From an uncultured Acidobacteriota bacterium (GTDB taxonomy: Bacteria > Acidobacteriota > Terriglobia > Acidiferrales > UBA7541): DNA of 64,000 bases. The notes beneath the pieces are model-generated. The model was not told the origin of the DNA and made no database searches. It saw only the letters and a list, made by a program, of their open reading frames with translations. Both the position numbers and the translations under genes were made by a program. How positions within the stretch are numbered: the stretch's first letter is position 1; each line of letters begins with the position of its first letter. Location: NCBI GenBank assembly GCA_963836145.1, contig CAWIIJ010000012.1, positions 107,142-171,141 on the forward strand. The letters are read 5' to 3'. Below, piece by piece: positions 10,576-34,243 of the stretch.

Positions 10576-11673
10576 GTGACCACCACTGAAAATTTCTCTG
10601 GCATCGAGCGGCGCCGCAGCCCTTCAGCTCGGGGAGAACAACGCGAGGCGGGCGAGATTGCGGTGTTCCACGAACTGGGCAAGGCGCTCACTTCCTCCCT
10701 GCAACTCGATCAAGTCCTGCGCACCATCATGGAAAAGATCGACGAATTTCTGCGTCCGGATACCTGGTCGCTGCTTCTGGTGGATGATGTAAAGCAGGAA
10801 TTGTATTTCGAACTGGCCGTCGGCAAAGGCGCGCAGGCCCTGAAAGATGTGCGCATCAAAATGGGGCAGGGAATCGCCGGCTGGGTGGCGCAGCATGACG
10901 AAGCGGTGATCGTGCCGGACGTCAGCAAGGACACGCGATTTTTCTCCAAGGTCGACGAAAAGACGCAGATGGAAACGCGCTCGATCGTGGCCGTTCCGGT
11001 ACGCTACCGCGACCATTGCCTGGGCGTCATCGAGCTGATCAATTGCGTGGAGCGCGAAGGCTTCATGGAACGCGATCTGGCGCTGCTCGAAGCATTGGCC
11101 GACTTTGCCGCGATCGCGCTTGAAAATGCGCGGCATGTGAAACGAATCCATGAACTCACCATCACCGACGATTGCACCAGCCTGTACAACGCGCGGCACA
11201 TGGATTTTATTCTGGAAACGGAAATTTACCGCTCGCAGCGTTATGGCTACGAATTTTCAGTGGTTTTCATCGACCTCGATCATTTCAAGAGCGTCAATGA
11301 TACCCACGGGCACCTCGTCGGATCGAAGCTCCTCGCCGAAGTCGGGCAAATCGTGAAGAGCGCCTGCCGACGGATTGATTTCGCCTTCCGGTACGGGGGA
11401 GATGAATTTGTGATCGTTCTGCCGCAGGCCACCAAGGAAAACGCCTTTGTGGTCGCGCGCCGCCTGCACAAATTGATCGGGGAAACGCGCTGGCTGAGCA
11501 GCGAGGGGCTGGATGTGCATTTCACGGCCAGCATCGGAGTGGCGTCGTATCCCTCCGACGCGAAGACCAAGGTGGAATTGCTACACCTGGCCGACGAGGC
11601 CATGTATGCGATCAAGAACACCACACGCAACGGCGTGGCCGCGGCAAAAGTCGGCGCGTTGCCCACAAAATAA
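10576..11673 (+). CDS. GAF domain-containing diguanylate cyclase
   Basis: The C-terminal GGDEF domain has an intact RYGGDEF site, with RRID (RxxD I-site) five residues upstream. GTG start. Confidence 0.88.
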   Translation: MTTTENFSGIERRRSPSARGEQREAGEIAVFHELGKALTSSLQLDQVLRTIMEKIDEFLRPDTWSLLLVDDVKQELYFELAVGKGAQALKDVRIKMGQGIAGWVAQHDEAVIVPDVSKDTRFFSKVDEKTQMETRSIVAVPVRYRDHCLGVIELINCVEREGFMERDLALLEALADFAAIALENARHVKRIHELTITDDCTSLYNARHMDFILETEIYRSQRYGYEFSVVFIDLDHFKSVNDTHGHLVGSKLLAEVGQIVKSACRRIDFAFRYGGDEFVIVLPQATKENAFVVARRLHKLIGETRWLSSEGLDVHFTASIGVASYPSDAKTKVELLHLADEAMYAIKNTTRNGVAAAKVGALPTK

Positions 11674-11830
11674 ATCGGTTTTTGGACTCGATTTCCACAG
11701 CAGTATACATTCCCGCCTCCCGCATCTTCTTGATTCACTTCCTATGCCATGCTAGTCTCAGCGCTTCCGGTGACACGCCGCAGTGTGAATGGAGTGGATG
11801 TCCCGGTCGAGCATCCGAGACGAGGAGCGC

Positions 11831-12127
11831 ATGTCCAACGAAGCATTGGGGATGATTGAGACCAAGGGCCTGGTCGCTTCGATCGAAGCGGCCGACGCCA
11901 TGGTGAAGGCCGCCAACGTCATCCTCGTCGGCAAGGAATACATCGGCTCGGGATATGTCACCGTGATGGTGCGCGGAGACGTCGGCGCGGTGAAAGCCGC
12001 GACTGACGCGGGCGCGGCCGCAGCGCGCCGCGTGGGCGAGCTTGTTTCCGTGCATGTAATTCCGCGCCCGCACGAGCACGTGGAAAAGATTTTGCCCGGA
12101 GGCGGAGCGGCAGGAACGAAGAAGTAA
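11831..12127 (+). CDS. bacterial microcompartment shell protein, BMC-H (PduA/EutM/CcmK-like)
   Basis: [30 protein letters not shown]...[17 protein letters not shown] is the canonical BMC-domain sequence. Start trimmed to ATG 11831, behind GAGGAG. Confidence 0.9.
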
Positions 12128-12254
12128 ACCGCGAGGACGCGCGGTGCATCGAGCGGCCGCTAAGTTTCTGCAGCTCGCGTCAACGGTCTTCAGGCCTGCG
12201 GTTCCGGAGCCGGCGAACGAAGGCAGCGATGTTGGTAGGAGAAGGTAAAGCGTT

Positions 12255-14327
12255 TTGAGCCTGCGCGATCGCGACCTCATCTCCATTCAAGAAGCCCGCG
12301 AACTGGCGGCCCGGGCGGCTGCCGCACAGAAAAAATTCGCAGCATTTTCCCAGGAACAAGTTGACGCCGTCGTGGAGGCTTGCGCGAGAGCAGCCGCTGA
12401 AAATGCGGAGCCGCTGGCGCGCACGGCCGTGGAAGAAACCGGCTTCGGCAACGTCCCCGACAAGATCGTAAAGAACACGCTCGCCGCGGTGAACGTGCCG
12501 CGCGCGATTCGCGGCCTGTGCACCGTCGGAATTCTGCGCGAGGATCGCGACAAGGGAATCGTCGAGGTCGCCTCGCCGATCGGCGTTGTGGCGGCAGTGA
12601 TTCCTTCGACGAACCCAACCTCGACGGCCATCTACAAAACGATCATCTCCATCAAAGCGCAGAACGCGATTGTGCTGAGCCCGCATCCTTCGGCCATCAA
12701 GTGCATTTGCCAGGCGGCCACGCTGCTCGATCGCGCGGCACTTCAGGCGGGCGCGCCGGACGGCCTGATCCAGTGCATGTTGCACACCACGCTCGAAGGC
12801 ACGCGTGAGCTGATGCGCCGGCCCGAAGTCGGCGTCATCCTTGCCACCGGCGGCACGGGACTCGTGCGCGCGGCGTACGGGTCGGGCAAGCCGGCCTACG
12901 GCGTCGGTCCGGGGAACGTTCCGGCGTTCATCGAACGCACGGCCGACGTGCGCAAGGCCGTCGCGGACATCATCGCCGGGAAAACTTTCGACTATGGGAC
13001 GATCTGCTCATCCGAGCAGGCAGCGGTCGCCGAGGAATCGGTGCGCGAGCGCGCGCTCGAGGAATTCCGCCGGCAGGGCGCGTATTTTCTTTCTCCGGAT
13101 GAAATGGAAAGGGTCGCGCGCCTCGTTTTCCTGCCGGGATCGCACACGCCGAACACGAAAATTGTTGGCCGCGCGGCGACCGTGATTGCCGAGCTGGCCG
13201 GAATCAAAGTGCCGCCGGCGACGCGCGTGCTGATCGCGCGTCTCGAACCGGAACAAGTTGGCCGCGAGTTCCCGCTCTCGGCTGAAAAACTGTCACCGGT
13301 CCTGGCCTTCTATGCGGTGCCGAATCTCCCGGCGGGAATCGCTCTTTGCCGCCGGCTGCTGGAATTCGGAGGCCTGGGTCACACCTGCGCGATCCATTCG
13401 CAGAATCGCTCCGCAATTCTGCAATTCGGCGAAGCCATGCCGGCGTTTCGCGTAGTTGTGAACAGCGCGTCGGTGCACGGCTCGATCGGCTATTCGACCA
13501 ACCTCTTTCCCGCGATGACTCTCGGCTGCGGCGCACCCGGCGGCAACATCACTTCGGACAACATCGGCCCGCAACACTTGATGAACGTGAAGCGCATCGC
13601 CTGGGAATCGCGCGGCGTCGAGCACCACACCGTTCCCGCGGCGGAACGCATGGCGGGCGCGGCGATTGCGGCTGCGCCTGAAGCAGTCCAGGAAAGGGAG
13701 AGCGTGTCCCCGCCGCCGGCTGCGAAGCCCAATCCTGTTGAGAATCCGGCGGCGGCGCTGCCTGGGCCGAGGCTGGAGGAAAAGAAATCCGCCGCAAGCG
13801 CGGGGGCGCCCGCTTCCGCAGCCACCACCGGTGGAGTGGACCGCGCCGCTGTCGCGCGCGTGGTCGAGAATGTTCTCAAAGCGCAAGGGATCGTTCGTGG
13901 CAGCGGCGTTCCAAGGCCCATAAATCCGTCTCCGCCAGCACCGGAGCGCTCGACGAAAGAATTGCCCAGCCCGTCTTTGATCGCCGCTGAAGTTGCGGAC
14001 CGGCTTTTTGGTTTGGCGGCGCAATTGGGGACGAATGTTTCCATCGCTCCGCCCCAGGGCGGCGCTTCAGCATTGAGCGAGGGCCAGCCTAAAGGCTCGC
14101 GCGAAAACAACCAAGTCTCAAGCGGCGACTCCGGGAAAAAGCCCGAGGCCGCCGCAAAAATACCCGTCGAAATTCAAGGCTTTGTCAGCGAAAACGATGT
14201 GCGGCGCGCGATGACGCGCAGCGAAAAAATCTTCATCGGGCGCAAGACCATCCTCACGCCTTCCGCGCGCGATCTGGGTTTGGAGCACGAAGTGTTTGTG
14301 GAAACCGAATCCGGCTCAATCCGCTAG
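12255..14327 (+). CDS. CoA-acylating aldehyde dehydrogenase (EutE/PduP type) with ~230-aa C-terminal extension
   Basis: [26 protein letters not shown] and the catalytic [11 protein letters not shown] (Cys251). aa ~460-690 form a Pro/Ala-rich tail. TTG start behind AGGAGAAGG. Confidence 0.88.
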
Positions 14328-14427: not shown

Positions 14428-14510
14428 GTCATTTCGAGCGGAGCGAGGAATTTGTCCTAGGCTTAACTATCGGAAAGAAAAGAAAGATTCGTCGCTCCGC
14501 TGGGAATAAC
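14428..14510. repeat. R2 inverted-repeat element (GTCATTTCGAGCGGAGCGAGGAAT ... GATTCGTCGCTCCGCTGGGAATAAC)
   Basis: ~24-nt arms around a GAAAAGAAAGA-containing spacer. Relatives at 25683-25765 and 57224-57307. Confidence 0.85.
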
Positions 14511-14551
14511 AAACGGTGGCGCGAGTTTTTCTTCAGCCGCTGAAGCGTGTC

Positions 14552-15439
14552 CTACTTTAAGTACTTATCGAAAAATGCCATGGTGCGATCCCACGCCAGC
14601 GTGGCCGCCTCCTTGTCGTACCGTGGCGTTGTGTCGTTGTGGAAGCCATGATTGGCTCCAGCATAGATGTACGCGGTGTAGGTGATGTGATTGGCCTTCA
14701 GCGCGGCTTCGAATGCCGGCCAGCCCGCGTTCACGCGTGTATCCAGCCCGCCGTAGTGAATCAGGAGCGGCGCCTTGATCTTGGCGACGTCCTCCGGGCT
14801 AGGCTGCATTCCGTAAAACGGGACCGCGGCCGCAAGATCGGGCATGCGCACCGCGAGCGCATTGGCCACGCCTCCACCGTAGCAGAAGCCGACCACTCCG
14901 ATCTTTCCCGTGCAGGCCGGGTTCGATTTCAAGAACATCGCGGCGGCGTACCAATCTTCCATCATTTTCTTGGGATCGAGCTTGGACTGCATATCGCGGC
15001 CCTTGTCGTCATCGCCGGGATATCCGCCGAGCGGAGTCAGTTCGTCGGGCGCTAGCGCGAGATAGCCCGCCACGCCCAGGCGGCGGGCGACATCCTCGAT
15101 GTAGGGATTCAGGCCGCGGTTTTCGTGGACCACGAGCACGCCCGGCAATTTCCCCTTGGCTTCCGCCGGCCGCGCGAGATAGGCGCGAATCGTGCCTTAT
15201 CCTTCTGGCGATTGGAACGTGATGTATTCGGTCTTCAGGCGCTTGTCATCTTTGGGGACTTGCTCGGCGAAGGCGTATTTCGGCGCGAGAGCTTCGTAGA
15301 TCGCGGAGGCGGTCAGGCCGCCCACGGCGAATTTCGCGGCGCCGTCCATGAACTCGCGGCGGCTGATTCCGCCGTGAACGTATTGATCGAAAAGATTGAG
15401 CAATTCCTGATCGAAGTCCGACGCTTTTTTTCGTTCCAT
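14552..15439 (-). pseudogene. dienelactone hydrolase family gene with Tat signal, interrupted by one in-frame TAA
   Basis: Track ORFs 15197..15499 and 14552..15148 are in the same frame. Read-through gives ...[35 protein letters not shown]..., with the TAA at 15197-15199. The N-terminus carries ISRREFMDGAAKFAVGG. ATG at 15439 behind GGGAGG. Confidence 0.8.
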
Positions 15440-15558
15440 GGGGGCCTCCCGTTTCACGCTGTTGGGCGAAGAATAACACGGGCCGGAATGGCGTACCACG
15501 CCATTGCGGGCGGCCGGATTGGTGGTATCGTACGGCTGGCTGGCGGTCGGGAAGCCGA

Positions 15559-15760: not shown

Positions 15761-15823
15761 AAAACGAGTGGGTGGTTGCCCTTGGAGCGGTGGCTGCCCC
15801 CAGAGCTCGGGGCGGGTGCCGGT

Positions 15824-15850
15824 GAGATTCCTCGTTCCGCTCGGAACGAC
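15824..15850. repeat. R2 half-copy (GAGATTCCTCGTTCCGCTCGGAACGAC)
   Basis: Matches the right arm of R2 elements. Confidence 0.7.
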
Positions 15851-15923
15851 AAAATAGATTTTTTCTTGCGCAGGCGGTGAAGTGCGGGTTGGTGAAGTAT
15901 GGGTATTGGTTCTTGCAAGAACG

Positions 15924-18762: not shown

Positions 18763-18772
18763 GGTGTATGAT
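18763..18772 (+). promoter_or_regulatory. conserved GGTGTATGAT box (-10-like TATGAT) upstream of A1
   Basis: The same box recurs at 20373-20382 and 21268-21277, each 52-56 nt before the start codon. TTGACG lies 19 nt upstream here. Confidence 0.35.
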
Positions 18773-18823
18773 TCATTCCAATTGAATCTGGCACATGACT
18801 TGGGACCGGGGAGGAGTTTGAAA

Positions 18824-19615
18824 ATGCGAAGTAGCGCATTGGGTGTCGTGCTGGCGCTGCCGATTGTTTTCATTTGCGCTCCGGCGGTTTCCGCGCAAAC
18901 CAAGCCGGCGGCTCAAACGCCCGCCTCTTCGGCGCCCTTCGATCCCCATGACTTGTCCGGAGTTTGGAGCCAAGAGCACCCCCGAACGGCTCCGGTCGTG
19001 GAGCGCTATTGGAATTATGAGTTCAGCAAGGAACCGCCTCCCATGACGGCCTGGGGAAAGGCGCAGTTCGACGCGGCGAAATCCTCGTTCGGGCTTCACA
19101 CGTATCCCCTTGCGGAAACGAACGATCCTCTTTATCACAGCTGCACTCCGCCCGGACTGCCGCGCGTCTATCTGCATCCTTTCCCAATGGAAATTGTGCA
19201 GATGCCCGGAGAAATATTGATCCTGTTTGAGTACGACTCTCTCCGCCACCCGATTTACACGGACGGTCGAAAACATGACGAAACTCTGGGTCCGTTGTGG
19301 ATGGGTGACGCCATCGGCCACTGGGAGGGAGACACGCTGGTTGTGGACACCGTGAACTTCAATGACAAGACCTGGATCGACCGCGTCGGGCATCCGCACA
19401 GCGCCGAACTGCACCTCGTCGAGCATATCCGGCGGACTGACCGCGGGCACTTGACGGACGACATCACCATCGAGGACCCCAAGGCCTACACGCGGCCCTG
19501 GACGGCTCACCTGGATTTCATACTCCGGCCGACCTGGACTCTGGGCGAACAGTTCTGCGAGGACGAGCACAGTTTTGAAAACTTCGATAAGGGCGCGGCA
19601 ACGCCGCCGAAATAG
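18824..19615 (+). CDS. secreted protein, unassigned family A, paralog A1 (263 aa)
   Basis: Signal peptide MRSSALGVVLALPIVFICAPAVSA/Q. Family blocks DLSGVW, PPMTAWG, NDPLY..C.PPG.PR, TDGR, GHWEGDTLVV, GHPHS and DPKAYT. ATG behind GGGGAGGAG. Confidence 0.85.
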   Translation: MRSSALGVVLALPIVFICAPAVSAQTKPAAQTPASSAPFDPHDLSGVWSQEHPRTAPVVERYWNYEFSKEPPPMTAWGKAQFDAAKSSFGLHTYPLAETNDPLYHSCTPPGLPRVYLHPFPMEIVQMPGEILILFEYDSLRHPIYTDGRKHDETLGPLWMGDAIGHWEGDTLVVDTVNFNDKTWIDRVGHPHSAELHLVEHIRRTDRGHLTDDITIEDPKAYTRPWTAHLDFILRPTWTLGEQFCEDEHSFENFDKGAATPPK

Positions 19616-19806
19616 ACCTGCACCCTCCATGTGATGGCCGAATCGCGGCGACTGGGTTTTTGTGGTTACAGGGGATCCGCGCGCGACTACGGAGTTGACA
19701 CCACGCAACTTGGATGGGATATTTTGATCAGTTCACTCTTTTGTTGCTGAGTTTCCTCGGCAACCGTAACGTTAATTTGATTCGCTCCTTTTCCGGAGGC
19801 ACGGAA

Positions 19807-20184
19807 ATGAAAAAAATCGCGTTCTTTGTGGCCGTGGCCTTTGCGCCGCTTCTGGTATCGACCCCTGTTCTGGCGCATCACGGGGAAGCGAATTACGATA
19901 CGGACAAAGTCGTGTCCGTAAAGGGCACCGTGTCGGACTTTCAATTCATCAATCCGCACACGCTGATCACCCTGGACGTCAAAAACGACAAGGGCGAGAT
20001 TGAGAAGTGGAACTGCGAAATGAGAAGTCCCACCATGCTGGTCCGCGCGGGCGGTTGGGACAAGAACACGCTCAAGATCGGCGACGTCATCACGGTTTAT
20101 GGTTACCGGGCGAAGAATGGCACGACGGTTATGCGGCTGCAAAAGCTCACGCTCCCGGACGGCACGTTGAAAGACAATCTGTAA
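19807..20184 (+). CDS. secreted small protein, DUF6152-like, paralog B1 (125 aa)
   Basis: MKKIAFFVAVAFAPLLVSTPVLA/HHGEANYD..FINPH..W.CE..SP..L.R.GW..GD. The family name is recalled from memory. Confidence 0.8.
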   Translation: MKKIAFFVAVAFAPLLVSTPVLAHHGEANYDTDKVVSVKGTVSDFQFINPHTLITLDVKNDKGEIEKWNCEMRSPTMLVRAGGWDKNTLKIGDVITVYGYRAKNGTTVMRLQKLTLPDGTLKDNL

Positions 20185-20372
20185 GAGCGGGAAGCTTCGC
20201 CGAGCGGCAGGGCGCTCCGGGGGCGCCCCTGGTTACGGTTGACGAAATTACGTTTGGCGAAACACGCTGCCCGATCCGCGGCCTGATTTTTCCTCAGTGG
20301 TTTCTGTGCTCAATTTGCGCCTCTGATTCTCGTACGCCCTCAGGATTAGTCTTGACCTAGTCGAACCGCTGC

Positions 20373-20382
20373 GGTGTATCAT
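20373..20382 (+). promoter_or_regulatory. conserved GGTGTATCAT box (-10-like TATCAT) upstream of A2
   Basis: Same geometry as the box at 18763 (CTTGAC ... GCGGTGTAT(G/C)AT). It ends 56 nt before ATG 20438. Confidence 0.35.
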
Positions 20383-20437
20383 CGCCTGAAATCTGAATCC
20401 CAATAGACAGTTTTAAGTTTCGGGAGGCGTTCACGAG

Positions 20438-21220
20438 ATGCGAAATCCAATACCCGGCATGGCGTTCGCGTTCGCGATGGTCGTCACCGTCTCGTCGTTG
20501 GCGTCCGCTCAGAGCAAACCGGAATCGGATGCGGCCCCGGCTGTGAGCGTGGACCCATCGCACGATTTGTCAGGTGTCTGGATGAGAAACGCCCCGCCCG
20601 CGACCGGTCTGGAATACTGGGTCTACGAGTTCAGCAAAGAAGATCCTCCCATGACGCCGTGGGGCGAAGCGCAATTCAAAGCGGCCAAGTCCTCGTTCGG
20701 GGATCACCCGTATCCCCTCAACGAAGTGAATGACCCGCTCTACCACAACTGCGCCCCTCCGGGTGTGCCGCGCATTTATCTTCATCCGACGCCCGTGCAG
20801 ATCGTTCCGGCGCCTGGCGAACTGATCATGCTCTTTGAATATGACTTCATCCGGCGCCAGATTTTCATAGATGGCCGCCCGCACGACAAAACTTTCGGGC
20901 CCATGTGGATGGGAGATTCGATCGGACACTGGGAGGGCGACACGCTGGTCGTGGACACCGTGAATTTCAATACCAAGACCTGGCTGGACCGAATGGGCCA
21001 TCCGCACAGCGACGCCCTGCACGTGATCGAACGTTTCCGCCGGCCCGACCACGGGCACTTGTCGCTGGACATCACCATTGACGATCCCAAGGCTTATTCC
21101 AAACCCTGGACGACGCACCTGGATTTCCTGCTCAAGCCGTGGACTCTCGAGGAGCATCTCTGCGTGGACTACGACACCTTCCAGAATGTTGAGAACGGAG
21201 AGACGATGCCAGCGAAATAG
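20438..21220 (+). CDS. secreted protein, family A, paralog A2 (260 aa)
   Basis: Signal peptide ...VSSLASA/QSKP and all family blocks. RBS GGGAGG. Confidence 0.85.
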   Translation: MRNPIPGMAFAFAMVVTVSSLASAQSKPESDAAPAVSVDPSHDLSGVWMRNAPPATGLEYWVYEFSKEDPPMTPWGEAQFKAAKSSFGDHPYPLNEVNDPLYHNCAPPGVPRIYLHPTPVQIVPAPGELIMLFEYDFIRRQIFIDGRPHDKTFGPMWMGDSIGHWEGDTLVVDTVNFNTKTWLDRMGHPHSDALHVIERFRRPDHGHLSLDITIDDPKAYSKPWTTHLDFLLKPWTLEEHLCVDYDTFQNVENGETMPAK

Positions 21221-21267
21221 CCGCGATTCACGCGTTTGATAGATCGGCTGCTGGCTCGATGCGCCGT

Positions 21268-21277
21268 GGTGTATGAT
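21268..21277 (+). promoter_or_regulatory. conserved GGTGTATGAT box upstream of A3
   Basis: Ends 56 nt before GTG 21333. Confidence 0.3.
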
Positions 21278-21332
21278 TTCTCCAAAGCGAGAATTCAAAA
21301 AACGGAATTGGGACTTGCGGAGGTGTTTCGCA

Positions 21333-22124
21333 GTGCGAATTCATAACCTCGCCATTGCTCTCGCGCTCTCGATGCTCGGCAATTGTTCGGTTGTGCTCTT
21401 GGCTCAAACGCAACCGCCATCGAAACCGGCGCAGTCCGCTGCTTCCGGTCAGGTGCCTGACTTGTCAGGAGTTTGGTTCAACGATCATCCCCGGCCGATG
21501 ACCTCCAACGAGCGCTACTGGATCTACAAGTTCACGATAGAAGAGCCTCCCATGACCGCATGGGGCCTGGCGCAATACAACGCCACCAAATCTTCCTTTG
21601 GAACCCGATCGTATCCCCTGGCCGAGACCAACGACCCGCTGTACCACACCTGCGCTCCCCCGGGATTCCCGCGTATTTATCTCCATCCGTTTCCAATGCA
21701 GATCGTTCAAACGCCCAGCGAAGTCATCTTCCTGTTTGAGTACGACTCGATCCGCCACCAGATTTTCACGGACGGGCGCGCGCATGACACGACGCTCGGT
21801 CCACTGTGGATGGGCGACTCGATCGGGCATTGGGAAGGCGACACGCTGGTCGCCGATACGGTGAATTTCAATGACAAGACCTGGCTCGATCGTATCGGTC
21901 ACCCGCACAGCGCGGATCTCCACGTCGTGGAGCGCATCCGGCGAGTGGACCATGACCATTTAGTGGACGACATCACGATCGAAGATCCCAAGGCGTATAC
22001 CCGGCCGTGGACCACTCAGATCGAATTTCTGCTGAAGCCCAAGTGGACTCTCGAAGAACAGTTCTGCGAGGATGAAGAAAGCTTCCAATCGATGGACAAG
22101 GACGCCGCCGCACCAAAAAAGTAG
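21333..22124 (+). CDS. secreted protein, family A, paralog A3 (263 aa)
   Basis: Track ORF trimmed to GTG 21333, 9 nt after GGAGG. Signal peptide VRIHNLAIALALSMLGNCSVVLLA/QTQP. Confidence 0.82.
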   Translation: MRIHNLAIALALSMLGNCSVVLLAQTQPPSKPAQSAASGQVPDLSGVWFNDHPRPMTSNERYWIYKFTIEEPPMTAWGLAQYNATKSSFGTRSYPLAETNDPLYHTCAPPGFPRIYLHPFPMQIVQTPSEVIFLFEYDSIRHQIFTDGRAHDTTLGPLWMGDSIGHWEGDTLVADTVNFNDKTWLDRIGHPHSADLHVVERIRRVDHDHLVDDITIEDPKAYTRPWTTQIEFLLKPKWTLEEQFCEDEESFQSMDKDAAAPKK

Positions 22125-22156
22125 CCATCATGGCGGATCGAGCTAGGAGTTTTGGA

Positions 22157-22948
22157 ATGCGAAAGTATCCACTGGCCATTCTCGTGGCGCTGACGATCGG
22201 CCTGGGTTTCTTGGCCATGGCATCGGCTCAAAACAAACAACCCTCCGCGACGCCAAGCGCCGCCAGTTCGAATCCGGCGCACGATTTGTCGGGCGTATGG
22301 TTTGACGACCATCCGCGGCTCATTCGGGTCATGGATCGATACTGGGCTTACGAATTCACCAAGGAAGAGCCCCCCATGACGGCCTGGGGCGAAGAGCAGT
22401 TCAAGGCGGCCAAACCGTCCTTCGGAACTCGCTCCTATCCTCTCGCGGAATCCAACGATCCCATTTATCACACCTGCGATCCGATCGGATTCCCGCGGAT
22501 TTATCTTTATCCGTTGCCGATGCAGATCGTTCAAAGGCCCGGCGAGGTTATCCTGCTTTTCGAATATGATTCGCTGCGCCATCAGATTTACACGGACGGC
22601 CGCCCGCATGACACAAGTCTCGGCCCTCTTTGGATGGGCGATTCGATCGGCCATTGGGAAGGCGACACGCTGGTCGCCGACACCGTGAATTTGAACAACA
22701 AGACTTGGATCGATCGCATGGGGCACCCGCATAGCGATGCCCTGCACGTGATCGAACGATTTCAGCGCGTGGATCACGATCATCTCGTGGACGACATTAC
22801 CATCGACGACCCCAAGGCCTACACCAGACCATGGACCGCGCATCTCCCGTACGTGCTGAAACCGAAGTGGACTTTGGCCGAAGAGTTTTGTGAGGACGAG
22901 GGCTCCTTCCAGAACATTGAAAACGACGAAACCCAGCCGGCCAAGTAA
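22157..22948 (+). CDS. secreted protein, family A, paralog A4 (263 aa)
   Basis: ATG 22157 behind AGGAG. Signal peptide MRKYPLAILVALTIGLGFLAMASA/QNKQP. Confidence 0.85.
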   Translation: MRKYPLAILVALTIGLGFLAMASAQNKQPSATPSAASSNPAHDLSGVWFDDHPRLIRVMDRYWAYEFTKEEPPMTAWGEEQFKAAKPSFGTRSYPLAESNDPIYHTCDPIGFPRIYLYPLPMQIVQRPGEVILLFEYDSLRHQIYTDGRPHDTSLGPLWMGDSIGHWEGDTLVADTVNLNNKTWIDRMGHPHSDALHVIERFQRVDHDHLVDDITIDDPKAYTRPWTAHLPYVLKPKWTLAEEFCEDEGSFQNIENDETQPAK

Positions 22949-22970
22949 TTAACCGAGAGGTCCCCCCGCA

Positions 22971-23762
22971 ATGCGAAAGCATCTACCCGGAATTGCGTTG
23001 GCATTCGTAACCGCGCTGATTTATTCACCGGGCCCGCGCGCTCAGACCAAACAGCCACCGGACACCCAGAAGGCTCCCGCTTCATTCGATCCGCATGACT
23101 TGACGGGCGTGTGGATGCAGGACCGCCCTCGGTTGCAGACGGTCGTGGCGCGATATTGGATTTATGAGCTGACCCAGGAAGAGCCCCCCATGACCGCGTG
23201 GGGACTGGCGCAGTACAAAGCTGCCAAGTCTTCCTTTGGAACTCATTCATACCCGCTCGCGGAAACGAACGATCCGATCTACCGCAACTGCTATCCCACC
23301 GGCTTCCCGCGCGCTTTTTTTCATGCCTTTCCGCTGCAAATTGTCCAGACACCCGGCGAGGTCATCATGCTTTTCGAGTGGGACTCCCTGCGGCACCAGA
23401 TTTTTACCGATGGGCGCAAGCATGACAGCAGCCTCGGCCCGCTGTGGATGGGCGATTCGATTGGACATTGGGAGGGCGACACGATGGTTGCGGACACCGT
23501 GAATTTCAACGACAAGACCTGGCTGGACCGTATTGGCCACCCCCACAGCGAGGCTTTGCACGTGATCGAACGTATCCGGCGCCCGGATCACGGCCACCTG
23601 GAGGATGAAATCACCATCGACGATCCCAAGGCCTACACTAAGCCGTGGACCGGACGCATCGTTTTTGCGCTGAAGCCCACCTGGACTCTTTCCGAGGAAT
23701 TCTGCGAAGACATCAGCAGCTTTGAAAACATCGAAAAGCAGGAGGTTGCTCCCGCGAAGTAG
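22971..23762 (+). CDS. secreted protein, family A, paralog A5 (263 aa)
   Basis: Signal peptide MRKHLPGIALAFVTALIYSPGPRA/QTKQP. Starts 22 nt after the A4 stop. Confidence 0.85.
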   Translation: MRKHLPGIALAFVTALIYSPGPRAQTKQPPDTQKAPASFDPHDLTGVWMQDRPRLQTVVARYWIYELTQEEPPMTAWGLAQYKAAKSSFGTHSYPLAETNDPIYRNCYPTGFPRAFFHAFPLQIVQTPGEVIMLFEWDSLRHQIFTDGRKHDSSLGPLWMGDSIGHWEGDTMVADTVNFNDKTWLDRIGHPHSEALHVIERIRRPDHGHLEDEITIDDPKAYTKPWTGRIVFALKPTWTLSEEFCEDISSFENIEKQEVAPAK

Positions 23763-23773
23763 CGACTTTGGGA

Positions 23774-23803
23774 TTGACAGATCTCTAATTGAGGTGGGAT
23801 ATT
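23774..23803 (+). promoter_or_regulatory. possible sigma70 promoter TTGACA-N18-GATATT upstream of B2
   Basis: Perfect -35 at 23774-23779 and a weak -10 at 23798-23803. Confidence 0.35.
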
Positions 23804-23882
23804 TCCCTCAGATACTTTCCAAAGTCGCAACTTCAGCGCAATGGTGTGTCGATCTTGGTTGCTGCCTGCAGGAGGCTGGGAA

Positions 23883-24260
23883 ATGAAAACCTGGGTGCTG
23901 GGCCTGGCGATTATGCTTGCGGCTCTTTTTCTGTCGGCGCCGGTCATGGCGCATCATGGCGAAACGAATTATGATACTGACAAACTCGTGAGCGTGAAGG
24001 CCACCGTGACGAGCTTCGAATTCATCAATCCCCACGTGCAGATCACGTTGGAAGCCAAGAATGACAAGGGCGAAACCGAAAAATGGATCTGCGAAGCCCG
24101 CAGCCCGGCGATGCTGGTCCGCAACGGCGGCTGGGATAAAAATACGCTCAAGCCCGGTGACGTGATCACCGCCACCGGTTTTCGCGCCAAAAACGGAACG
24201 AATATCCTGCGCCTGAAAAAAATTGTGCTCTCCAACGGCACGGAGCTGCCCGACCTATAG
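23883..24260 (+). CDS. secreted small protein, DUF6152-like, paralog B2 (125 aa)
   Basis: MKTWVLGLAIMLAALFLSAPVMA/HHGETNYD..FINPH. Very similar to B1 by eye. Confidence 0.8.
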   Translation: MKTWVLGLAIMLAALFLSAPVMAHHGETNYDTDKLVSVKATVTSFEFINPHVQITLEAKNDKGETEKWICEARSPAMLVRNGGWDKNTLKPGDVITATGFRAKNGTNILRLKKIVLSNGTELPDL

Positions 24261-24342
24261 AACGGTCACTGCAGAACGGCCGCGCGGTTCGGAGCCGGCA
24301 ATCACAGCGTAAACGCGTAGATTCAAACTGCGAGGGTGTGGC

Positions 24343-24738
24343 ATGAACTTGAAGACGAAAGCCTCCATTTTCCTGATCGCAAGTTTTCTTCTGGCGAGTG
24401 TCCCGGCGCGGGCGCACCACGGAAATTCGGCTTACGACGAGAGTCATTGGATCACGCTCTCCGGCACGGTCACGGAGTTCGTGTGGTCCAATCCTCATTG
24501 CCAGATTTTTTTGGACGTGAAGGATGACAAGGGTGCCGTCGTAAACTGGGCCATCGAAAGCCAGAGCCCCGGCATTTTGCGGCGGAACAATTGGACCCGC
24601 AATTCCGTCAGGGCCGGCGACCAGATTACCATCACGCTGGCCCCCGCGAAAAACGGAGCGCCCGTCGGCTTTTCCGGAAATCAACTGGGAAAAGTCGTGT
24701 TCGCCGATGGCCACATATTAAAGATGGACATTCGCTAA
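24343..24738 (+). CDS. secreted small protein, DUF6152-like, paralog B3 (131 aa)
   Basis: MNLKTKASIFLIASFLLASVPARA/HHGNSAYD..WSNPH. More divergent than B1 and B2. Confidence 0.8.
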   Translation: MNLKTKASIFLIASFLLASVPARAHHGNSAYDESHWITLSGTVTEFVWSNPHCQIFLDVKDDKGAVVNWAIESQSPGILRRNNWTRNSVRAGDQITITLAPAKNGAPVGFSGNQLGKVVFADGHILKMDIR

Positions 24739-24843
24739 CAGCAGTAGCGCCGGGGTCCCGTCCTGTGCGCTTTTGGCGGCCAAACGTTTGTGCAGCGCCC
24801 GCTGTTCGATTTATCTTTTTCCGCAGCCGGAAAGAGGTCCGAA

Positions 24844-25641
24844 GTGCGAACAAGCCTAAAATCTTCTCTCCCGGCTTTTGCGGCGCTTTTGGCGGCGCTG
24901 ACGCTATTGACCGCCGCCCGCATGTATGCCGCCCCGCGACGAGCCGCCCAGAAATCCCCGGCCATGCCAGCTCCCAAGCGCGACCTGACCGGAGTTTGGC
25001 AACTCCAGAGCAAAGACGGCGGCGCGCAGCCTATCGCGCCAGACGACGACATGCCGCCGATGACGCCCTGGGCGAAGGCCAGATTCGTTGCAGAGAAGCC
25101 TGGATACGGCGCTCGCGGCGCCGCGGGCGGCAATGACCCCATCCTGCAGTGCGATCCGATTGGCTTCCCGCGAATCATGTTGATGCCCACGCCAAATGAA
25201 CTTGTTCAGCTTCCTGATCGAGTCCTCCAGTTCTGGGAGCGCGAACACGAATGGCGTCCCATTTGGACCGACGGCCGCTCGCTGCCCAGCGATCCCGACC
25301 CCACCTGGTACGGTTACGCTATTGGCCACTGGGAAGGTGACGACACTTTCGTCGTGCAATCGGCCGGCTTCAACGACAAAACGTGGCTCGGTCCCACAGG
25401 TTATCCGCACTCCGACGAGATGCAAGTCACGGAACGCTATCATCGCGTGGACCATGACACCATTGTCTACGACATGACCATCACGGATCCAAAGGCCTAC
25501 ACCAAGCCGGTCATGGCGCCTCAGCGAATCATGAAACTAAAGCCCCATGAAGAGATCGAAGAGCAGCCATGTGTCTGGTCGCAAGAAAATGAATTCACCC
25601 AAAGAATCCGGGAGCCCGCAACCCCCAAGCGCCGGCAGTAG
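24844..25641 (+). CDS. secreted protein, family A (divergent subfamily), paralog A6 (265 aa)
   Basis: GTG 24844 behind GGAAAGAGG. Blocks DLTGVW, PPMTPWA, GNDPILQCDPIGFPR, GHWEGDDTFVV, GYPHSDE and DPKAYT. Confidence 0.8.
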   Translation: MRTSLKSSLPAFAALLAALTLLTAARMYAAPRRAAQKSPAMPAPKRDLTGVWQLQSKDGGAQPIAPDDDMPPMTPWAKARFVAEKPGYGARGAAGGNDPILQCDPIGFPRIMLMPTPNELVQLPDRVLQFWEREHEWRPIWTDGRSLPSDPDPTWYGYAIGHWEGDDTFVVQSAGFNDKTWLGPTGYPHSDEMQVTERYHRVDHDTIVYDMTITDPKAYTKPVMAPQRIMKLKPHEEIEEQPCVWSQENEFTQRIREPATPKRRQ

Positions 25642-25682
25642 GACAGGCTACACAGGCTGAGGAGAAAGTACCCAGCCCTGTT

Positions 25683-25765
25683 GTCATTCCAAGAGGAGCG
25701 AGGAATTTCTCTTTCTTTTCTAATAGTCAGGCCCAGGAGAGATTCGTCGCTCCGCTCGGGATGAC
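25683..25765. repeat. R2 inverted-repeat element
   Basis: GTCATTCCAAGAGGAGCGAGGAAT...GATTCGTCGCTCCGCTCGGGATGAC. Same orientation as the 57224 copy and opposite to the 14428 copy. Confidence 0.85.
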
Positions 25766-25827
25766 AAATCGAGTGCTTTCTCCACAGCCTACGGAGCCTG
25801 GCAGCTTTAAATGCACGAACATGCAAA

Positions 25828-26688
25828 GTGCCCGGTGGAAAGAACTCTGTCGGTCAAGCACCCCGGCCAGCCGCCGCGGAAAGGAAAAGTAACATTCTCC
25901 CCAGCGCAAAATACGCCGCAGCAACGCTCCTGCCCTTGCTGCTCTCCTGCGCCGTATCGCCGGCAGCGGCTCAGCAGCCGCCCGCCGCAAAATCGACGGC
26001 GGCCCACGCCGCGGCTCCCGTTCCGAAGCGAGACCTTTCCGGCCTATGGCACTACCAAAGCACCGGCGCCTCCGAACCCATCGCCCCCGATAACATGATT
26101 CCGCCAATGACTCAGTGGGCCAAGGCAAGGTTCGACCTGGAAAAGCCAGGATACGGCCCCAGGCGCGCGCCGGGCGGCAATGACCCGATTTTGCGATGCG
26201 ATCCGATGGGTTTCCCGCGGGTGATGTTTTTAAATACGCCCTTCGAGTTCGTTCAGGCACCTGGCCGGGTGATTCAGTTTTTCGAACACGAACACGAGTA
26301 CCGCACCATATGGACGGACGGCAGGCCTCTGCCCACCGACGTCGATCCAACGTGGTATGGATACGCCATCGGCCATTGGGAGGGAGACGACACGCTCGTG
26401 GTTGAATCCTCAGGCTTCCGCGACAGTACCTGGCTAGGTTCCACCGGCTACCCCCACAGCGAAGACATGCGCGTTACCGAACGCTACCGTCGCGTGGATC
26501 AGGACACCATCCTCTACGACATCACCGTAACCGACCCCAAGGCCTACACCGAGCCCATCGTCGGCCCGCACCGAACCATGAAGCAGCGCCCGCACGACGA
26601 AATGGTGGAGGAGATTTGCGTCCCATCGGAAGAACAATCCTTTGCCGACCGGATCGCCGAGCCGGCCACGCCGAAATCCTCGAAGTAG
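25828..26688 (+). CDS. secreted protein, family A (divergent subfamily), paralog A7 (286 aa)
   Basis: The only canonical start upstream of the hydrophobic segment LLPLLLSCAVSPAAA/QQ is GTG 25828, giving a long n-region, so the start is uncertain. Blocks match A6. Confidence 0.75.
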   Translation: MPGGKNSVGQAPRPAAAERKSNILPSAKYAAATLLPLLLSCAVSPAAAQQPPAAKSTAAHAAAPVPKRDLSGLWHYQSTGASEPIAPDNMIPPMTQWAKARFDLEKPGYGPRRAPGGNDPILRCDPMGFPRVMFLNTPFEFVQAPGRVIQFFEHEHEYRTIWTDGRPLPTDVDPTWYGYAIGHWEGDDTLVVESSGFRDSTWLGSTGYPHSEDMRVTERYRRVDQDTILYDITVTDPKAYTEPIVGPHRTMKQRPHDEMVEEICVPSEEQSFADRIAEPATPKSSK

Positions 26689-26796: not shown

Positions 26797-27759
26797 TCAG
26801 AAACCGTATAGGCGGGCAGGATTGTCGACCAGGATCTTTTTGCGGATCGCCGGGTCCGGCGCCCACGTTGGAAGCAGATTGAGCAGGTGGCCGTCGTCGA
26901 CGGCGAACATGGGCATGGGGTCGGTAGGTTTTCCGCGATCGACCGGGGCCATCGGATGCGGCCAGTCGGTGCCCCACAGGATGCGATCCGGATTCGTCTC
27001 GATCAGGGCTTTGGCGAATGGCGCCATGTCCGGATAATCAGGGGCCTGTTTCGAGGAGCGGTAGGGCGCCGAAATTTTGACGTAGGCGCTGCCGGAACGG
27101 ACCAGTTCGAGCAGATCGGCGAAGCCCGGCTGCTGCAGGCCGCGCGCGGCTTGCGCTCCGGCGAAGTGGTCGAACACGGTGGGCACGGGCGAAGTGCGCA
27201 CCAGATCCTTCAGCGCGGAGACCACGGCCAGATCGGCGTAGATCTGAATGTTCCAGTTGTGCTTTTTGAATTGCGCGGCGGCCGCCTGATAAATCGGGCG
27301 CGCGAAAGTTGGATCGGGCAAGCCCGTGGCCGTGGCAATAACTCGCGCGCCGCGGACGCCCGCCTTGTACAGCGCTTCATAATCGTTATCGGTCATCTTG
27401 TCGTTGATCACCACGATGCCGCGCGCGTTCGCCCCGCGGGCCTTCATGGCGTAGAGCGTCGCGGAATTATCCGACCCGTAGGGGCTGGGGGTGACGATCA
27501 CCACCCGCTCCATGTGCAGCGCATTATGCAGCGCCGACATGTCTTCGGGGGTCATGGCCTCCGGCGTGTACACGTGCTGAGGGACGAGCGGAAACTGCCT
27601 GGTGTCCCCATAAAAATGGATATGGCAGTCGCAGGCGTGCGGTGGAACGGCAAAATTGACCGGCGTGGCCGGTTGCGGCGCCTTGGCAAGGCTTGGTAAG
27701 CCGCGCATCAACACACCCACGGCAATTGCTCCCGATACGAAGTTTCGTCGCGTCAGCAT
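26797..27759 (-). CDS. amidohydrolase family protein with Tat signal (LigI / 2-pyrone-4,6-dicarboxylate hydrolase-like)
   Basis: Track ORF 26797..28326 trimmed to ATG 27759, behind GGAGG. MLTRRNFVSGAIAVG, CDCHIHFYG and WGTDWPHP motifs. Confidence 0.85.
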   Translation of the reverse strand: MLTRRNFVSGAIAVGVLMRGLPSLAKAPQPATPVNFAVPPHACDCHIHFYGDTRQFPLVPQHVYTPEAMTPEDMSALHNALHMERVVIVTPSPYGSDNSATLYAMKARGANARGIVVINDKMTDNDYEALYKAGVRGARVIATATGLPDPTFARPIYQAAAAQFKKHNWNIQIYADLAVVSALKDLVRTSPVPTVFDHFAGAQAARGLQQPGFADLLELVRSGSAYVKISAPYRSSKQAPDYPDMAPFAKALIETNPDRILWGTDWPHPMAPVDRGKPTDPMPMFAVDDGHLLNLLPTWAPDPAIRKKILVDNPARLYGF

Positions 27760-27955
27760 CGCTGCCTCCGATCTGCTAATGGGATTTCCGGATTGGCTTT
27801 CTGGCTCGGAGCAGTATACGGTAACTTGCCTCAGGTTGGCGGGTGGAACTGGACTTTGAAGATGCGCCGGATCGATTGACTTGGAGACGTCTTTCGACCC
27901 CTGCCTTGCGAAACGAATTATAGAAGGGATGACGTACTCTCCGGTCGGAGGAACG

Positions 27956-28771
27956 ATGCTCGAGCCCGCCATCGTAGCGGAAGGATTGTCGCGCAGTTTC
28001 GGTAACCTCATTGCGGTGGACCATGTGGACTTGCGCGTGGATGCCGGACAATTCTTCGGTTTTCTTGGACCCAACGGAGCCGGGAAATCCACCACCATCC
28101 GCATGATGACCGGGCTGCTCGCGCCGACCGCCGGAAGCATCCGCCTGCTGGGGCTCAATCTGGAAACCAACTCGACCGAAGTAAAGCGCCAGATTGGTGT
28201 AGTCCCGGAAGGCCTGGCGCTGTTTGACCGCCTCACGGGAAGCGAATATTTGAATTTCGTGGGGCGAATGTACGGCCTGGACCGCGCCACAGCCGCGCAG
28301 CGCACGCGCGAATTGCTGGACTTCATGGACCTGGCCGACCGGCCGAAAACGCTGGTGGTGGACTACTCCCACGGAATGAAGAAAAAACTTGCTCTGGCCG
28401 CAGCCGTGATCCACGGGCCCAAGATTCTGTTTTTGGACGAGCCCTTCGAAGGAGTGGACGCGATCGCCGCCGGGACACTGAAGAGGATGTTAAACAACAT
28501 GACCGCGCGCGGGGCGACGATTTTTCTCACCTCTCACGTGCTTGAGATTGTGGAGCGCTTGTGCAGCCACGTGGCCATCATCAATAAGGGACGCATTATC
28601 GCGCAGGGTTCTCTGGACGAGCTTCGAGCGGGTGTGGCCGCCGCGTCGCACATGGATGGCGCCTCCGCGGCCCCGGCGCAGAAACTTACGCTGGAAGAAA
28701 TTTTTCTGGCCGTGGTGGGCAACGAAGCCGCGGCGCGGAAATCCGAGGAAGAGCTTTCATGGCTGAAGTAG
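27956..28771 (+). CDS. ABC transporter ATP-binding protein
   Basis: Walker A GPNGAGKST and an ABC signature region. ATG 27956 lies 5 nt after GGAGGA. Confidence 0.9.
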   Translation: MLEPAIVAEGLSRSFGNLIAVDHVDLRVDAGQFFGFLGPNGAGKSTTIRMMTGLLAPTAGSIRLLGLNLETNSTEVKRQIGVVPEGLALFDRLTGSEYLNFVGRMYGLDRATAAQRTRELLDFMDLADRPKTLVVDYSHGMKKKLALAAAVIHGPKILFLDEPFEGVDAIAAGTLKRMLNNMTARGATIFLTSHVLEIVERLCSHVAIINKGRIIAQGSLDELRAGVAAASHMDGASAAPAQKLTLEEIFLAVVGNEAAARKSEEELSWLK

Positions 28772-30609: not shown

Positions 30610-30623
30610 CACCGAAGGTTGTT
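30610..30623. repeat. 14-bp direct repeat, left copy (CACCGAAGGTTGTT)
   Basis: An identical 14-mer at 37797-37810 abuts the other inverted repeat. Confidence 0.9.
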
Positions 30624-30661
30624 GGGGTAGTGTACAGCGACGGCAAAATGCTCCCTCCCCC
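30624..30661 (+). repeat. 38-bp terminal inverted repeat, left (GGGGTAGTGTACAGCGACGGCAAAATGCTCCCTCCCCC)
   Basis: Perfect reverse complement of 37759-37796. Imperfect similarity continues ~90 nt inward, including a shared GGCGAGCGGCGAT. Confidence 0.92.
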
Positions 30662-30806
30662 CTTTCTGAGCGTTTATGGCCATGGCGAGCGGCGATTGCG
30701 TTGTTGCGGGTGCGCGGAATCGGGAGCGGGCGGTCCAGCAATGCAATGTAGAAGCGCGCGCTAGATAAACGTGTGGCGCGGCGGTGTGGGGGATGGCAGA
30801 GGGAAT

Positions 30807-31532
30807 CTACTGTTTCAAAAGAAATGCCAGGAAATTGGAGTGAAATTTCTCAGCCAATTCATCAGCAGATCGCGTGTGAAAAGTTACATTCTCCCGAAGA
30901 GATGTTCTCGGGTCGAGAATGTTGAGACGGACCGCAAAAGTGATAGCTTCATGGCCCCCTGCAGGGGGAACGTTCCACCACGTAACCGTTTGCTTCCCGT
31001 CTTCATCGCCGAGTGCTATGTGGGCGTTGGCTCTGGCAAGTAATTCCTTCGGAACGAAGCGATTATAGATCGCAAACACGGGTTGCAGTTCAGCCACGTC
31101 TTCGAGTTCCTTGTATTTTTCAATTGGGATACCCGATGCCACTTGGCTGGCAATTGCAAGCGCGAACTCAATCGGTATGACTTTTAAGAAGGCGGTTAGT
31201 TGCCCTAAGAGTTCCTCGCGCCATACTTGCCACGAGTTGAAACTCACGCCCCAACCGGCCCAAAGCAGGATTTCATTGCGGGAGATTTTACATTGAAAGT
31301 ATGGGTTCGCTTCAGTCCCATCCCCTTTTACGAGACTAACTTGATTCGCGGGTTGTGCTTGAACAATTTCAGAGAACAGCTTCTCCCTTACGAGGAGATA
31401 CTCAGCCAGCGAGGCCATTAGGCTAGCGCCGAGGCATTCGAACTTGAAACTTATCGCACACTGGTACGTGTTTTTTCCGAAGTCAACAATAGCCAAAACA
31501 ATCTTCTCCGTACGAGCTAGGCTACGGCGCAC
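30807..31532 (-). CDS. hypothetical protein (241 aa), island cargo
   Basis: The long ORF overlaps the end of the reconstructed upstream gene by 11 nt. GTG start is uncertain. No family recognised. Confidence 0.55.
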   Translation of the reverse strand: MRRSLARTEKIVLAIVDFGKNTYQCAISFKFECLGASLMASLAEYLLVREKLFSEIVQAQPANQVSLVKGDGTEANPYFQCKISRNEILLWAGWGVSFNSWQVWREELLGQLTAFLKVIPIEFALAIASQVASGIPIEKYKELEDVAELQPVFAIYNRFVPKELLARANAHIALGDEDGKQTVTWWNVPPAGGHEAITFAVRLNILDPRTSLRENVTFHTRSADELAEKFHSNFLAFLLKQ

Positions 31533-31701
31533 CTTGCATCGCTAGTTTTTCCGCCGTTTTCGATTCTTGTCTTGTTTCGACACCTAACCCTTGCAAAGCT
31601 GCTGCTCTTATCTGGCGCGCCTCCAATGACATGAAGCGGCTTTCTTCCAAATGCTTTTGCCACTCGGTCAGATACCTGCCATAAGTTAACTGAAGTATTT
31701 G

Positions 31702-33135: not shown

Positions 33136-33718
33136 AGTATTTGAGGAATCAAGATTCTGGCGTAAGCATTCTGTGGTAACTCTTCTAAACTTTTCTCTAG
33201 TTGGAGCGTAAGTAAACGAGTCTTACCTATGCCTGATGAGCCGAGAATAAAAACATTGGGACGCATACCTTGATATCTAAGACGCCCCCAATCCTGCTGC
33301 AGCAACCCGCTCGGTATCACGTGTTGCGCCGAAGATATTCCGAGCACCTGTGACCAAGCTTCTTCCTCGTCAGGCTGGACCGTCGATGAAATATCGCCCG
33401 GCAAATCAACGACGAAACTTTCCGGCAGTTTTTCCATTTGGTGATCGAGGTCGGCGGGGGATAAAACACACATTTTGTCTTCGGCAGGTGGTGCAACTGG
33501 GTGCAAGACTCCCCTGACTGCATCTAGGATCGGTCGCACCAACGCAAGCACTCCCCAAAAAACGAGCGTGAGCGCAAGTCCTACTCCGACCCCAGTCACA
33601 ATAAGAACAAGAAGTTCAACCATTTTTCAAATCCTCTAACCTACCCCCGTGTGTACCCATAATATATGATGACCGAAATGATCGCTATCGACGCGACTCC
33701 GAAGACGCAACTCCAACT

Positions 33719-34243
33719 TTGCGAAAACCGACGAGCCAAAGGTATCCTGCTACTCGATTGACTCAAAGTCGCCGACGCCAAGCTAAGGGTAGCTCGTTTG
33801 ATCCAGGAGCCGAAAATACACTTCGTCCGCTGCGTATCTGTCGAATTTGCGGCGCGACCATTAAGCGGGGTCAGACCTACTGTGCATCGTGCGCTGTCGG
33901 AGTTTCGAGGGAAAGGTTGATCGAGGCCGCAAAACTCGGGCGCATTGCTACGCTCACTCTTGAAGCAGAGACCCTCCGCGCTAAGACCCAACGAAAGCAC
34001 GCTGCCGCCATAGCTGCATGGCAGCCCTCCGAGTTGCCGGAATGGCTTACTGAGGAAGCTTACCGCAAGAAGATTCAACCCGCGCTTGCTGAAATAACTG
34101 TTCCCGCTATCGCAACTGCTCTCGGCATCTCGGAGCCCTACGCTACAGATATTCGTGCGGGCCGACGCATCCCACATCCAAGGCATTGGCTAGCGCTTAC
34201 AAGGCTTGTTGGTGTTTCGGCCAATTCTTCCCAATCTGAGTAA
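33719..34243 (+). CDS. hypothetical zinc-ribbon + HTH-like protein (174 aa), island cargo
   Basis: CRICGATIKRGQTYCASCA (CxxC..CxxC) and a C-terminal IATALGISEPYATDIRAGRRIPHPRHW. TTG start is uncertain. Confidence 0.55.
   Translation: MRKPTSQRYPATRLTQSRRRQAKGSSFDPGAENTLRPLRICRICGATIKRGQTYCASCAVGVSRERLIEAAKLGRIATLTLEAETLRAKTQRKHAAAIAAWQPSELPEWLTEEAYRKKIQPALAEITVPAIATALGISEPYATDIRAGRRIPHPRHWLALTRLVGVSANSSQSE

Follow-up and report, generated by a model that had tools for sequence, protein, structure and literature searches.

The stretch of DNA analysed here, 64 kb of the 201,823-bp contig CAWIIJ010000012.1 from an uncultured acidobacterium of the Acidiferrales/UBA7541 lineage and referred to below as the window, carries a two-gene locus in which a gene for a bacterial microcompartment (BMC) shell hexamer protein, BMC-H, is followed by a gene for a predicted CoA-acylating aldehyde dehydrogenase (AldDh). 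These two are the only microcompartment genes within the window, and the features of the locus and of its surroundings are collected in Table 1.

The BMC-H protein matched PF00936 over the full length of the profile (positions 1-75 of 75, Pfam scan) and scored 133 bits against the EutM-type NCBIfam model NF012018. It contains one BMC domain, about 80 aa long, with an IGSG pore motif and with KAAN and (P/A)RPH as its inter-hexamer motifs, which occur as MVKAANV and IPRPHEH in the protein from the window and in 54 distinct orthologue sequences. The position of the start codon was backed by an AGGAG Shine-Dalgarno sequence and by an N-terminus that is conserved in 71 orthologues.

AldDh combines the Aldedh fold with a catalytic cysteine that is invariant in 44 aligned homologues, and its TTG start is preceded by a AGGAGAAGG Shine-Dalgarno sequence. 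The best NCBIfam match was TIGR02518 (acetylating acetaldehyde dehydrogenase; 590 bits, residues 5-458, 451 of 488 profile positions), a family that resembles the N-terminal part of AdhE and occurs in the eut loci of Firmicutes. The same GxxCSSEQ catalytic motif and predicted chemistry are shared with this family and with the N-terminal half of AdhE, but AldDh falls below the equivalog cut-off (589.9 versus 620.1 bits), carries a C-terminal extension of 225 aa and has no linked eut genes. The EutE and PduP enzymes are likewise CoA-acylating BMC aldehyde dehydrogenases with a catalytic cysteine and an encapsulation peptide, but AldDh reached only 271 bits on the EutE-like model PRK15398 (cut-off 403) and the peptide of PduP is at the N-terminus. 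The sequence predicts a CoA-acylating reaction, in which aldehyde, CoA and NAD+ yield acyl-CoA.

An earlier sequence-only reading of this DNA had described a textbook BMC-H followed after 127 nt by an EutE/PduP-type enzyme with an intact Cys251. The profile match and edge motifs bear out the description of the shell protein, and both the length of the gap and the catalytic residue were found exactly as given. The label put on the enzyme holds for the chemistry; as a family assignment it is imprecise, given that the scores against TIGR02518 and PRK15398 are both below cut-off.

Table 1. Positions of the two genes, their parts and flanking features in the window.
Feature	Position	Strand	Basis or remark
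GAF-GGDEF protein, upstream of the pair	10576-11673		Pfam scan
Conserved upstream motif GATTTCCACAG	11690..11700	+	Conservation of 80% or more among 69 aligned upstream regions of orthologues
Promoter-like element, TTGATT-17 nt-TAGTCT, second hexamer preceded by TG	11730..11758	+	Conserved in 69 loci; lies about 75 nt ahead of the BMC-H start
BMC-H shell hexamer protein, 98 aa	11831..12127	+	PF00936, E=2.3e-29; KAAN/PRPH interface motifs
Intergenic spacer, 127 nt	12128..12254	+	Short GC hairpin (12128-12145) directly after the BMC-H stop; AldDh Shine-Dalgarno sequence
AldDh, 690 aa, TTG start	12255-14327	+	PF00171, E=3e-22
AldDh catalytic domain, residues 1 to about 465	12255..13649	+	PF00171; TIGR02518; high conservation to about residue 468
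Catalytic Cys251 codon (GTICSSEQ)	13005..13007	+	Invariant in 44 homologues
Encapsulation-peptide-like amphipathic helix 1, residues 528-545	13836..13889	+	Conserved island; predicted helix 530-543; hydrophobic-moment peak
Amphipathic helix 2, residues 573-590, possible second encapsulation peptide	13971..14024	+	Moderately conserved; predicted helix 573-585; hydrophobic-moment peak
Conserved C-terminal domain, residues 643-690 (48 aa), with stop codon	14181..14327	+	Near-invariant in orthologues
Dienelactone hydrolase (PF01738) with YqhI-like N-terminus, broken	14552-15499	-	One in-frame TAA at 15197-15199 (...QSPEG*GTIRAY...)
PF04909 amidohydrolase	26797-28326	-	Twin-arginine-like signal

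The C-terminal extension of the dehydrogenase

AldDh is 690 aa long and not about 460, the difference being made up by a C-terminal extension of about 225 aa that had no place in the sequence-only reading. In an alignment of 61 full-length orthologues the catalytic domain ended at about residue 465 and was followed by a variable linker rich in proline, alanine and serine, with three conserved islands. The two amphipathic helices of this tail both show an h-x-x-h-h-x-x-h-h pattern, which is known from the classical encapsulation peptides of PduD, PduP and EutC, and the second resembles a 'VVDRFL'-type peptide of distant clades. One or both of them may be encapsulation peptides. The helix positions were the only information used from an AlphaFold2 (AF2) model of full-length AldDh, which had been made with a shallow alignment (pLDDT 37).

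The terminal 48 residues were modelled separately as a beta-alpha-beta-hairpin-alpha-beta fold (AF2, pLDDT 89.8). A Pfam search with this domain gave no match, a weak match was obtained to the C-terminus of TIGR02536, an uncharacterised eut-locus family (E=0.008), and a Foldseek comparison of the model with the PDB gave none at E<0.5 (best E=0.55). When the domain was searched against 1.84 billion representative proteins, 376 matches were obtained at E<0.001 and, among the 150 listed, nearly all were C-termini of AldDh-like proteins with the order linker-peptide-linker-domain. Use of the domain on other cargo was considered and rejected, as this exhaustive search had returned nearly only AldDh-like C-termini among the matches listed. 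The tail (encapsulation peptide or peptides plus the 48-aa domain) can be regarded as a putative conserved docking module that has no known fold relative and that offers a clean target for cargo-loading experiments.

Conservation and solitary position of the pair

Related loci were sought in a genome scan with one genome per GTDB species. The scan returned 75 loci, about 70 of which belonged to Acidobacteriota (Terriglobia, Ca. Acidiferrales, Ca. Acidoferrum and Ca. Sulfotelmatobacter) together with a few metagenome-assembled genomes (MAGs) that were evidently mis-binned. Gene order was compared in the 71 loci for which upstream DNA was present, taken from genome-scan loci L003-L077 plus L001-L002; their AldDh proteins were 54-93% identical to that of the window and derived from MAGs of Acidobacteriota, Terriglobia and Ca. 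Acidiferrales, apart from a few records that were again evidently mis-binned. All of them (71/71) had exactly one BMC-H immediately upstream of AldDh, and no pentamer, BMC-T or second BMC-domain gene was found within ±10 kb. In the Acidiferrales-type lineage BMC-H is, by this count, obligately coupled to AldDh. Near-complete contigs on which the orthologous pair lies include CAVUGO010000002.1 (5.18 Mb), CAVPIN010000002.1 (5.14 Mb), CAVTRV010000002.1 (3.73 Mb), CAVRDJ010000002.1 (3.32 Mb) and CAWJFI010000001.1 (2.97 Mb). Soil and peat metagenomes also contained the enzyme, with more than 120 clusters of full-length AldDh homologues at 74-82% identity, whereas an exact look-up of the AldDh from the window gave no record.

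Across about 70 species BMC-H was visibly far more conserved than the adjacent AldDh, for which identity fell to 54%. Conservation this strong is what a functional major shell protein would be expected to show. The difference in constraint between the two genes is unusually large for one two-gene unit.

The pair sits in one housekeeping neighbourhood, made up of a rodZ-like gene, a GGDEF gene and lptC/A-lptB-rpoN. A bare pair of BMC-H and AldDh was also found in two further distant lineages. In a lineage of groundwater MAGs (L172:4419-6332 and L173:3969-5882) BMC-H is followed by about 1.2 kb without a forward-strand gene call and then by the last 147 aa of AldDh, and at L161:8728-10444 AldDh is split into 433 and 147 aa; these partial and split genes may reflect decay or assembly errors.

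The promoter-like element and the GATTTCCACAG motif upstream of BMC-H are common to 69 loci, which suggests that the pair is a transcription unit of its own with a conserved regulator site. The motif is possibly that site. The element is placed as a candidate promoter by its sequence and conservation, and its match to the consensus is too weak for listing by a generic promoter scan. Rfam, terminator and promoter scans around the pair gave nothing significant, and the fold of the intergenic spacer was no more stable than shuffled controls (z=+1.6).

The window was also searched for other shell genes. When BMC-H of the window, EutN, PduN and CcmL were used as phmmer queries against all window open reading frames (ORFs) of at least 40 aa, nothing further was obtained at E<0.2 (best E=0.25); in a sensitivity check the EutN query recovered PDB 2hd3 (1.5e-60) as well as other pentamers (1e-9 to 1e-16). 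Among the remaining large ORFs, Pfam scans identified housekeeping, transport, mobile-element and unknown genes. Of the canonical metabolosome core, in which a signature enzyme, AldDh, phosphotransacylase (PTAC), alcohol dehydrogenase (AlcDh) and BMC-P occur together, the window encodes AldDh only, with BMC-H beside it. The statement in the sequence-only reading that the 64 kb hold no other shell or metabolosome gene is upheld by both kinds of scan.

Relation to catalogued microcompartments

BMC loci in Acidobacteria had been mentioned in the sequence-only reading as catalogued, and a comparison with the catalogue (Sutter et al. 2021, Nat Commun 12:3809, PMC8217296) located there the ACI type, which comprises 125 loci, all from Acidobacteria, and includes satellites with BMC-H and AldDh. 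In the ACI main locus, BMC-H and a BMC-P triplet are encoded together with a hydroxyacid dehydrogenase (PF00389/PF02826) and an aldolase (PF00596) that carries an encapsulation peptide at its C-terminus, and the BMC-H of this type is assigned to the H_fuchsia or H_royalpurple class (PMC8217296). The satellite AldDh has an encapsulation peptide near its C-terminus followed by a domain of about 50 aa of unknown function (PMC8217296, Supplementary Data 2), and is sometimes accompanied by a BMC-H with the standard motifs (PMC8217296, main text and Supplementary Data 2).

As judged from its sequence, the architecture of the window protein (AldDh, linker, encapsulation peptide, domain of about 50 aa) corresponds point for point to the description of the ACI satellite. 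The host is an acidobacterium, as are the 71 relatives; AldDh lies away from other BMC genes, both in the window and in the surveyed flanks of the relatives; two peptide-like helices precede a terminal domain of the expected size; and the adjoining BMC-H has KAAN and PRPH edges. Among the differences are that BMC-H is an occasional companion in the catalogue and an obligate one in loci of the window type, and that the AldDh of the window appears to have two peptide-like helices.

The pair is therefore probably the aldehyde-dehydrogenase satellite of an ACI-type (ACI-like) metabolosome, to which it would contribute a facet hexamer and an encapsulation-tagged AldDh, with pentamers and aldolase encoded elsewhere. 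The sequence-only reading had left open whether the locus was a satellite or a minimal shell-plus-cargo pair; the first option is favoured because the architecture of AldDh matches that of the catalogued ACI satellite, and the second is the less likely one. Most likely the locus is one ordinary component of a dispersed organelle and not a new minimal one.

Independent information came from one AldDh clade with the same C-terminal domain (FVSEDDVRRAIQKGEKIYV...TPSARD), which is named Pyrinomonadaceae in NCBI records. This family belongs to subdivision 4, a lineage in which ACI was catalogued (PMC8217296). Two contigs of this clade (L174:233-3319 and L175:1-3383) have the gene order AldDh - BMC-P (PF03319) - ACT protein - Zn-ribbon membrane protein - DUF711 (PF05167), and on one of them (L175) BMC-H follows downstream of DUF711. 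At least one acidobacterial lineage, as these contexts show, has this type of AldDh in physical linkage with pentamers. The Pyrinomonadaceae satellite resembles the locus of the window in that the encapsulation peptide and C-terminal domain of its AldDh are homologous and in having BMC-H in the locus; it differs in that its BMC-H is downstream and in that no homologue of its BMC-P, ACT, Zn-ribbon and DUF711 genes was found in the window or in the vicinity of the 71 loci of Acidiferrales type. Together with the literature, these contexts lead us to expect a main ACI locus in the source genome. The table of the catalogue includes an ACT HMM common to ACI and MIC3 (PMC8217296), and the presence of ACT and DUF711 genes beside shell genes may be a clue to the function of ACI.

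If the pair is an ACI satellite, it would be transcribed from its own conserved promoter-like element, BMC-H would form facet hexamers of the shell, and AldDh, as an NAD-dependent CoA-acylating enzyme with Cys251 as the catalytic residue, would convert a toxic aldehyde to acyl-CoA inside the compartment. The enzyme would be tethered to the lumenal face of the shell by one or two C-terminal amphipathic encapsulation peptides and the conserved 48-aa terminal domain. The aldehyde in ACI loci is presumably freed from a sugar phosphate by the class II aldolase, and this aldolase, the pentamers, the hydroxyacid dehydrogenase and other parts would be encoded elsewhere in the genome. An organelle that is catalogued but functionally uncharacterised would thereby be extended to an abundant uncultured lineage of soil and peat (Acidiferrales/UBA7541 and relatives). 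No subsequent publication on ACI, or on Acidiferrales BMCs, was found in a literature search.

Several observations weigh against assignment to ACI. The main-locus set of that type (PF00596 aldolase, PF00389/PF02826 dehydrogenase and BMC-P triplet) is absent from the window, and neither there nor within ±10 kb of the 71 loci was a pentamer, an aldolase, a hydroxyacid dehydrogenase or another shell gene found. ACI is described as belonging 'primarily' to subdivisions 4 and 6 (PMC8217296), whereas the clade of the window is Terriglobia/Acidiferrales. In addition, Ca. Sulfotelmatomonas, also an acidobacterium, is catalogued with a PVM-type locus, which leaves room for a partner locus of a different type.

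The same solitary position can be explained if Acidiferrales-type genomes have no microcompartment genes besides those for BMC-H and the peptide-tagged AldDh. The hexamer would then form open structures (shells, sheets or tubes) by which AldDh is scaffolded or sequestered without a closed icosahedron. On this reading an ultra-conserved BMC-H would need no partner other than an AldDh equipped with two encapsulation peptides and a 48-aa domain dedicated to docking, and the two would constitute the smallest natural shell-plus-cargo system. We consider both the pentamer-less pair and its self-sufficiency unlikely. The occurrence of one BMC-H without BMC-P or BMC-T within ±10 kb in all 71 loci is what would be expected of such a system, the conserved promoter-like element and the stable housekeeping neighbourhood are those of a self-contained unit, and the extra genes of the Pyrinomonadaceae version (BMC-P, ACT, DUF711) have no homologue nearby. 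To our knowledge, however, all characterised BMCs close their shells with pentamers. Furthermore, the catalogue lists this type of AldDh as a satellite in genomes with a BMC-P-triplet main locus (PMC8217296), and fragmented BMCs with up to six sites are known, so that absence within 10 kb says little. The locus would be notable as a minimal compartment only if the genomes prove to be pentamer-free. In a search with the BMC-H protein, at least 120 matches were listed, all at least 86% identical and of the satellite type, with no main-locus paralogue among the matches listed, and one exact BMC-H sequence lay in the same satellite in each of ten genomic contexts.

A satellite of another catalogued type (PVM-like, FRAG-like or HO/SPU-like) would work by the same mechanism with other partner enzymes and another substrate, and appears quite unlikely. 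A PVM partner is suggested by Ca. Sulfotelmatomonas gaucii, which is catalogued with a PVM main locus. As for FRAG5 and FRAG8, their AldDhs are reported as the nearest relatives of the ACI enzyme and have an encapsulation peptide at the C-terminus, and FRAG-type shell genes are scattered over up to six genomic sites (PMC8217296); in both respects they resemble the locus of the window, but their hosts are Planctomycetes and Gemmatimonadetes, their signature enzymes are of SPU type and no terminal 50-aa domain has been described for them. When metagenomes were scanned with a BMC-P alignment, 80 loci were obtained, all of HO/SPU type (BMC-H - BMC-P - AldDh - BMC-T), and the C-terminal domain or ACI features were found in none of them. 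ACI is the only type described with an encapsulation peptide followed by a domain of about 50 aa, the taxon is Acidobacteria, and the Pyrinomonadaceae relatives have the ACI-associated ACT protein beside AldDh, all of which argue against a partner of another type.

The AldDh of the planctomycete type MIC3, with which the ACI AldDh is grouped in the main text of the catalogue, has a tail with four conserved cysteines and no peptide (PMC8217296). The window protein likewise ends in a small C-terminal domain behind a long and flexible linker, but this domain contains no cysteine and is preceded by the amphipathic helices. The cysteine-free domain fits ACI and not MIC3.

That there is no compartment at all, with BMC-H a relic or in another role and AldDh a cytosolic enzyme with a tail for oligomerisation or regulation, is highly improbable, as nothing speaks for it directly beyond a C-terminal domain without known function, and as BMC-H is very strongly conserved with intact KAAN and PRPH edges, the amphipathic peptides are conserved and the two genes are strictly coupled across distant lineages.

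Neighbouring genes and the remainder of the window

A GGDEF cyclase and a broken hydrolase had been named as neighbours of the pair in the sequence-only reading, and both were recovered. The GAF-GGDEF gene lies directly upstream in 56/69 loci and the hydrolase is present in 4/69; the former is a conserved neighbour and the latter an incidental one. The break in the hydrolase is a single in-frame TAA and not a frameshift. Copies of a 32-nt repeat flank this gene (14482-14513 and 15822-15853), with a third copy at 25737-25768.

By Pfam content the window holds genes for nucleoside metabolism, a family of secreted paralogues, a transposase island and lptC/A, lptB, rpoN, rapZ, coaBC, priA and others. 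The lptC/A-lptB-rpoN genes are at 37.8-42.4 kb; in many relatives (L158-L171) they come directly after AldDh, which indicates about 23 kb of inserted material in the window (14330-37860). This segment has the appearance of accreted insertions. One part of it (18764-26688) contains six or seven tandem secreted-protein paralogues of about 260-285 aa, without a Pfam match and with conserved ...NFNDKTWLDRxGHPHS... and ITIEDPKAYT motifs, among which two DUF6152 genes are interleaved; the array was also found in L001 and L002.

The PF04909 amidohydrolase was considered as a BMC partner and rejected on account of its signal-peptide-like N-terminus and its location in the inserted segment between the pair and lptC. 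The family is listed among the enzymes of MIC3 BMCs (PMC8217296), but the protein of the window looks exported and any link is probably a coincidence.

Further downstream, inverted repeats of 76 nt (30621-30696 and 37724-37799, 83% complementary) bound a 7-kb segment of low GC content (0.49-0.55). The genes of this segment encode a Mutator-family transposase (31752-33029, minus strand), an ORC/CDC6-like AAA ATPase (34428-35960) and a TPR protein (35960-37516), and the segment (30621-37799) looks like a mobile element, perhaps one with a defence-type ATPase.

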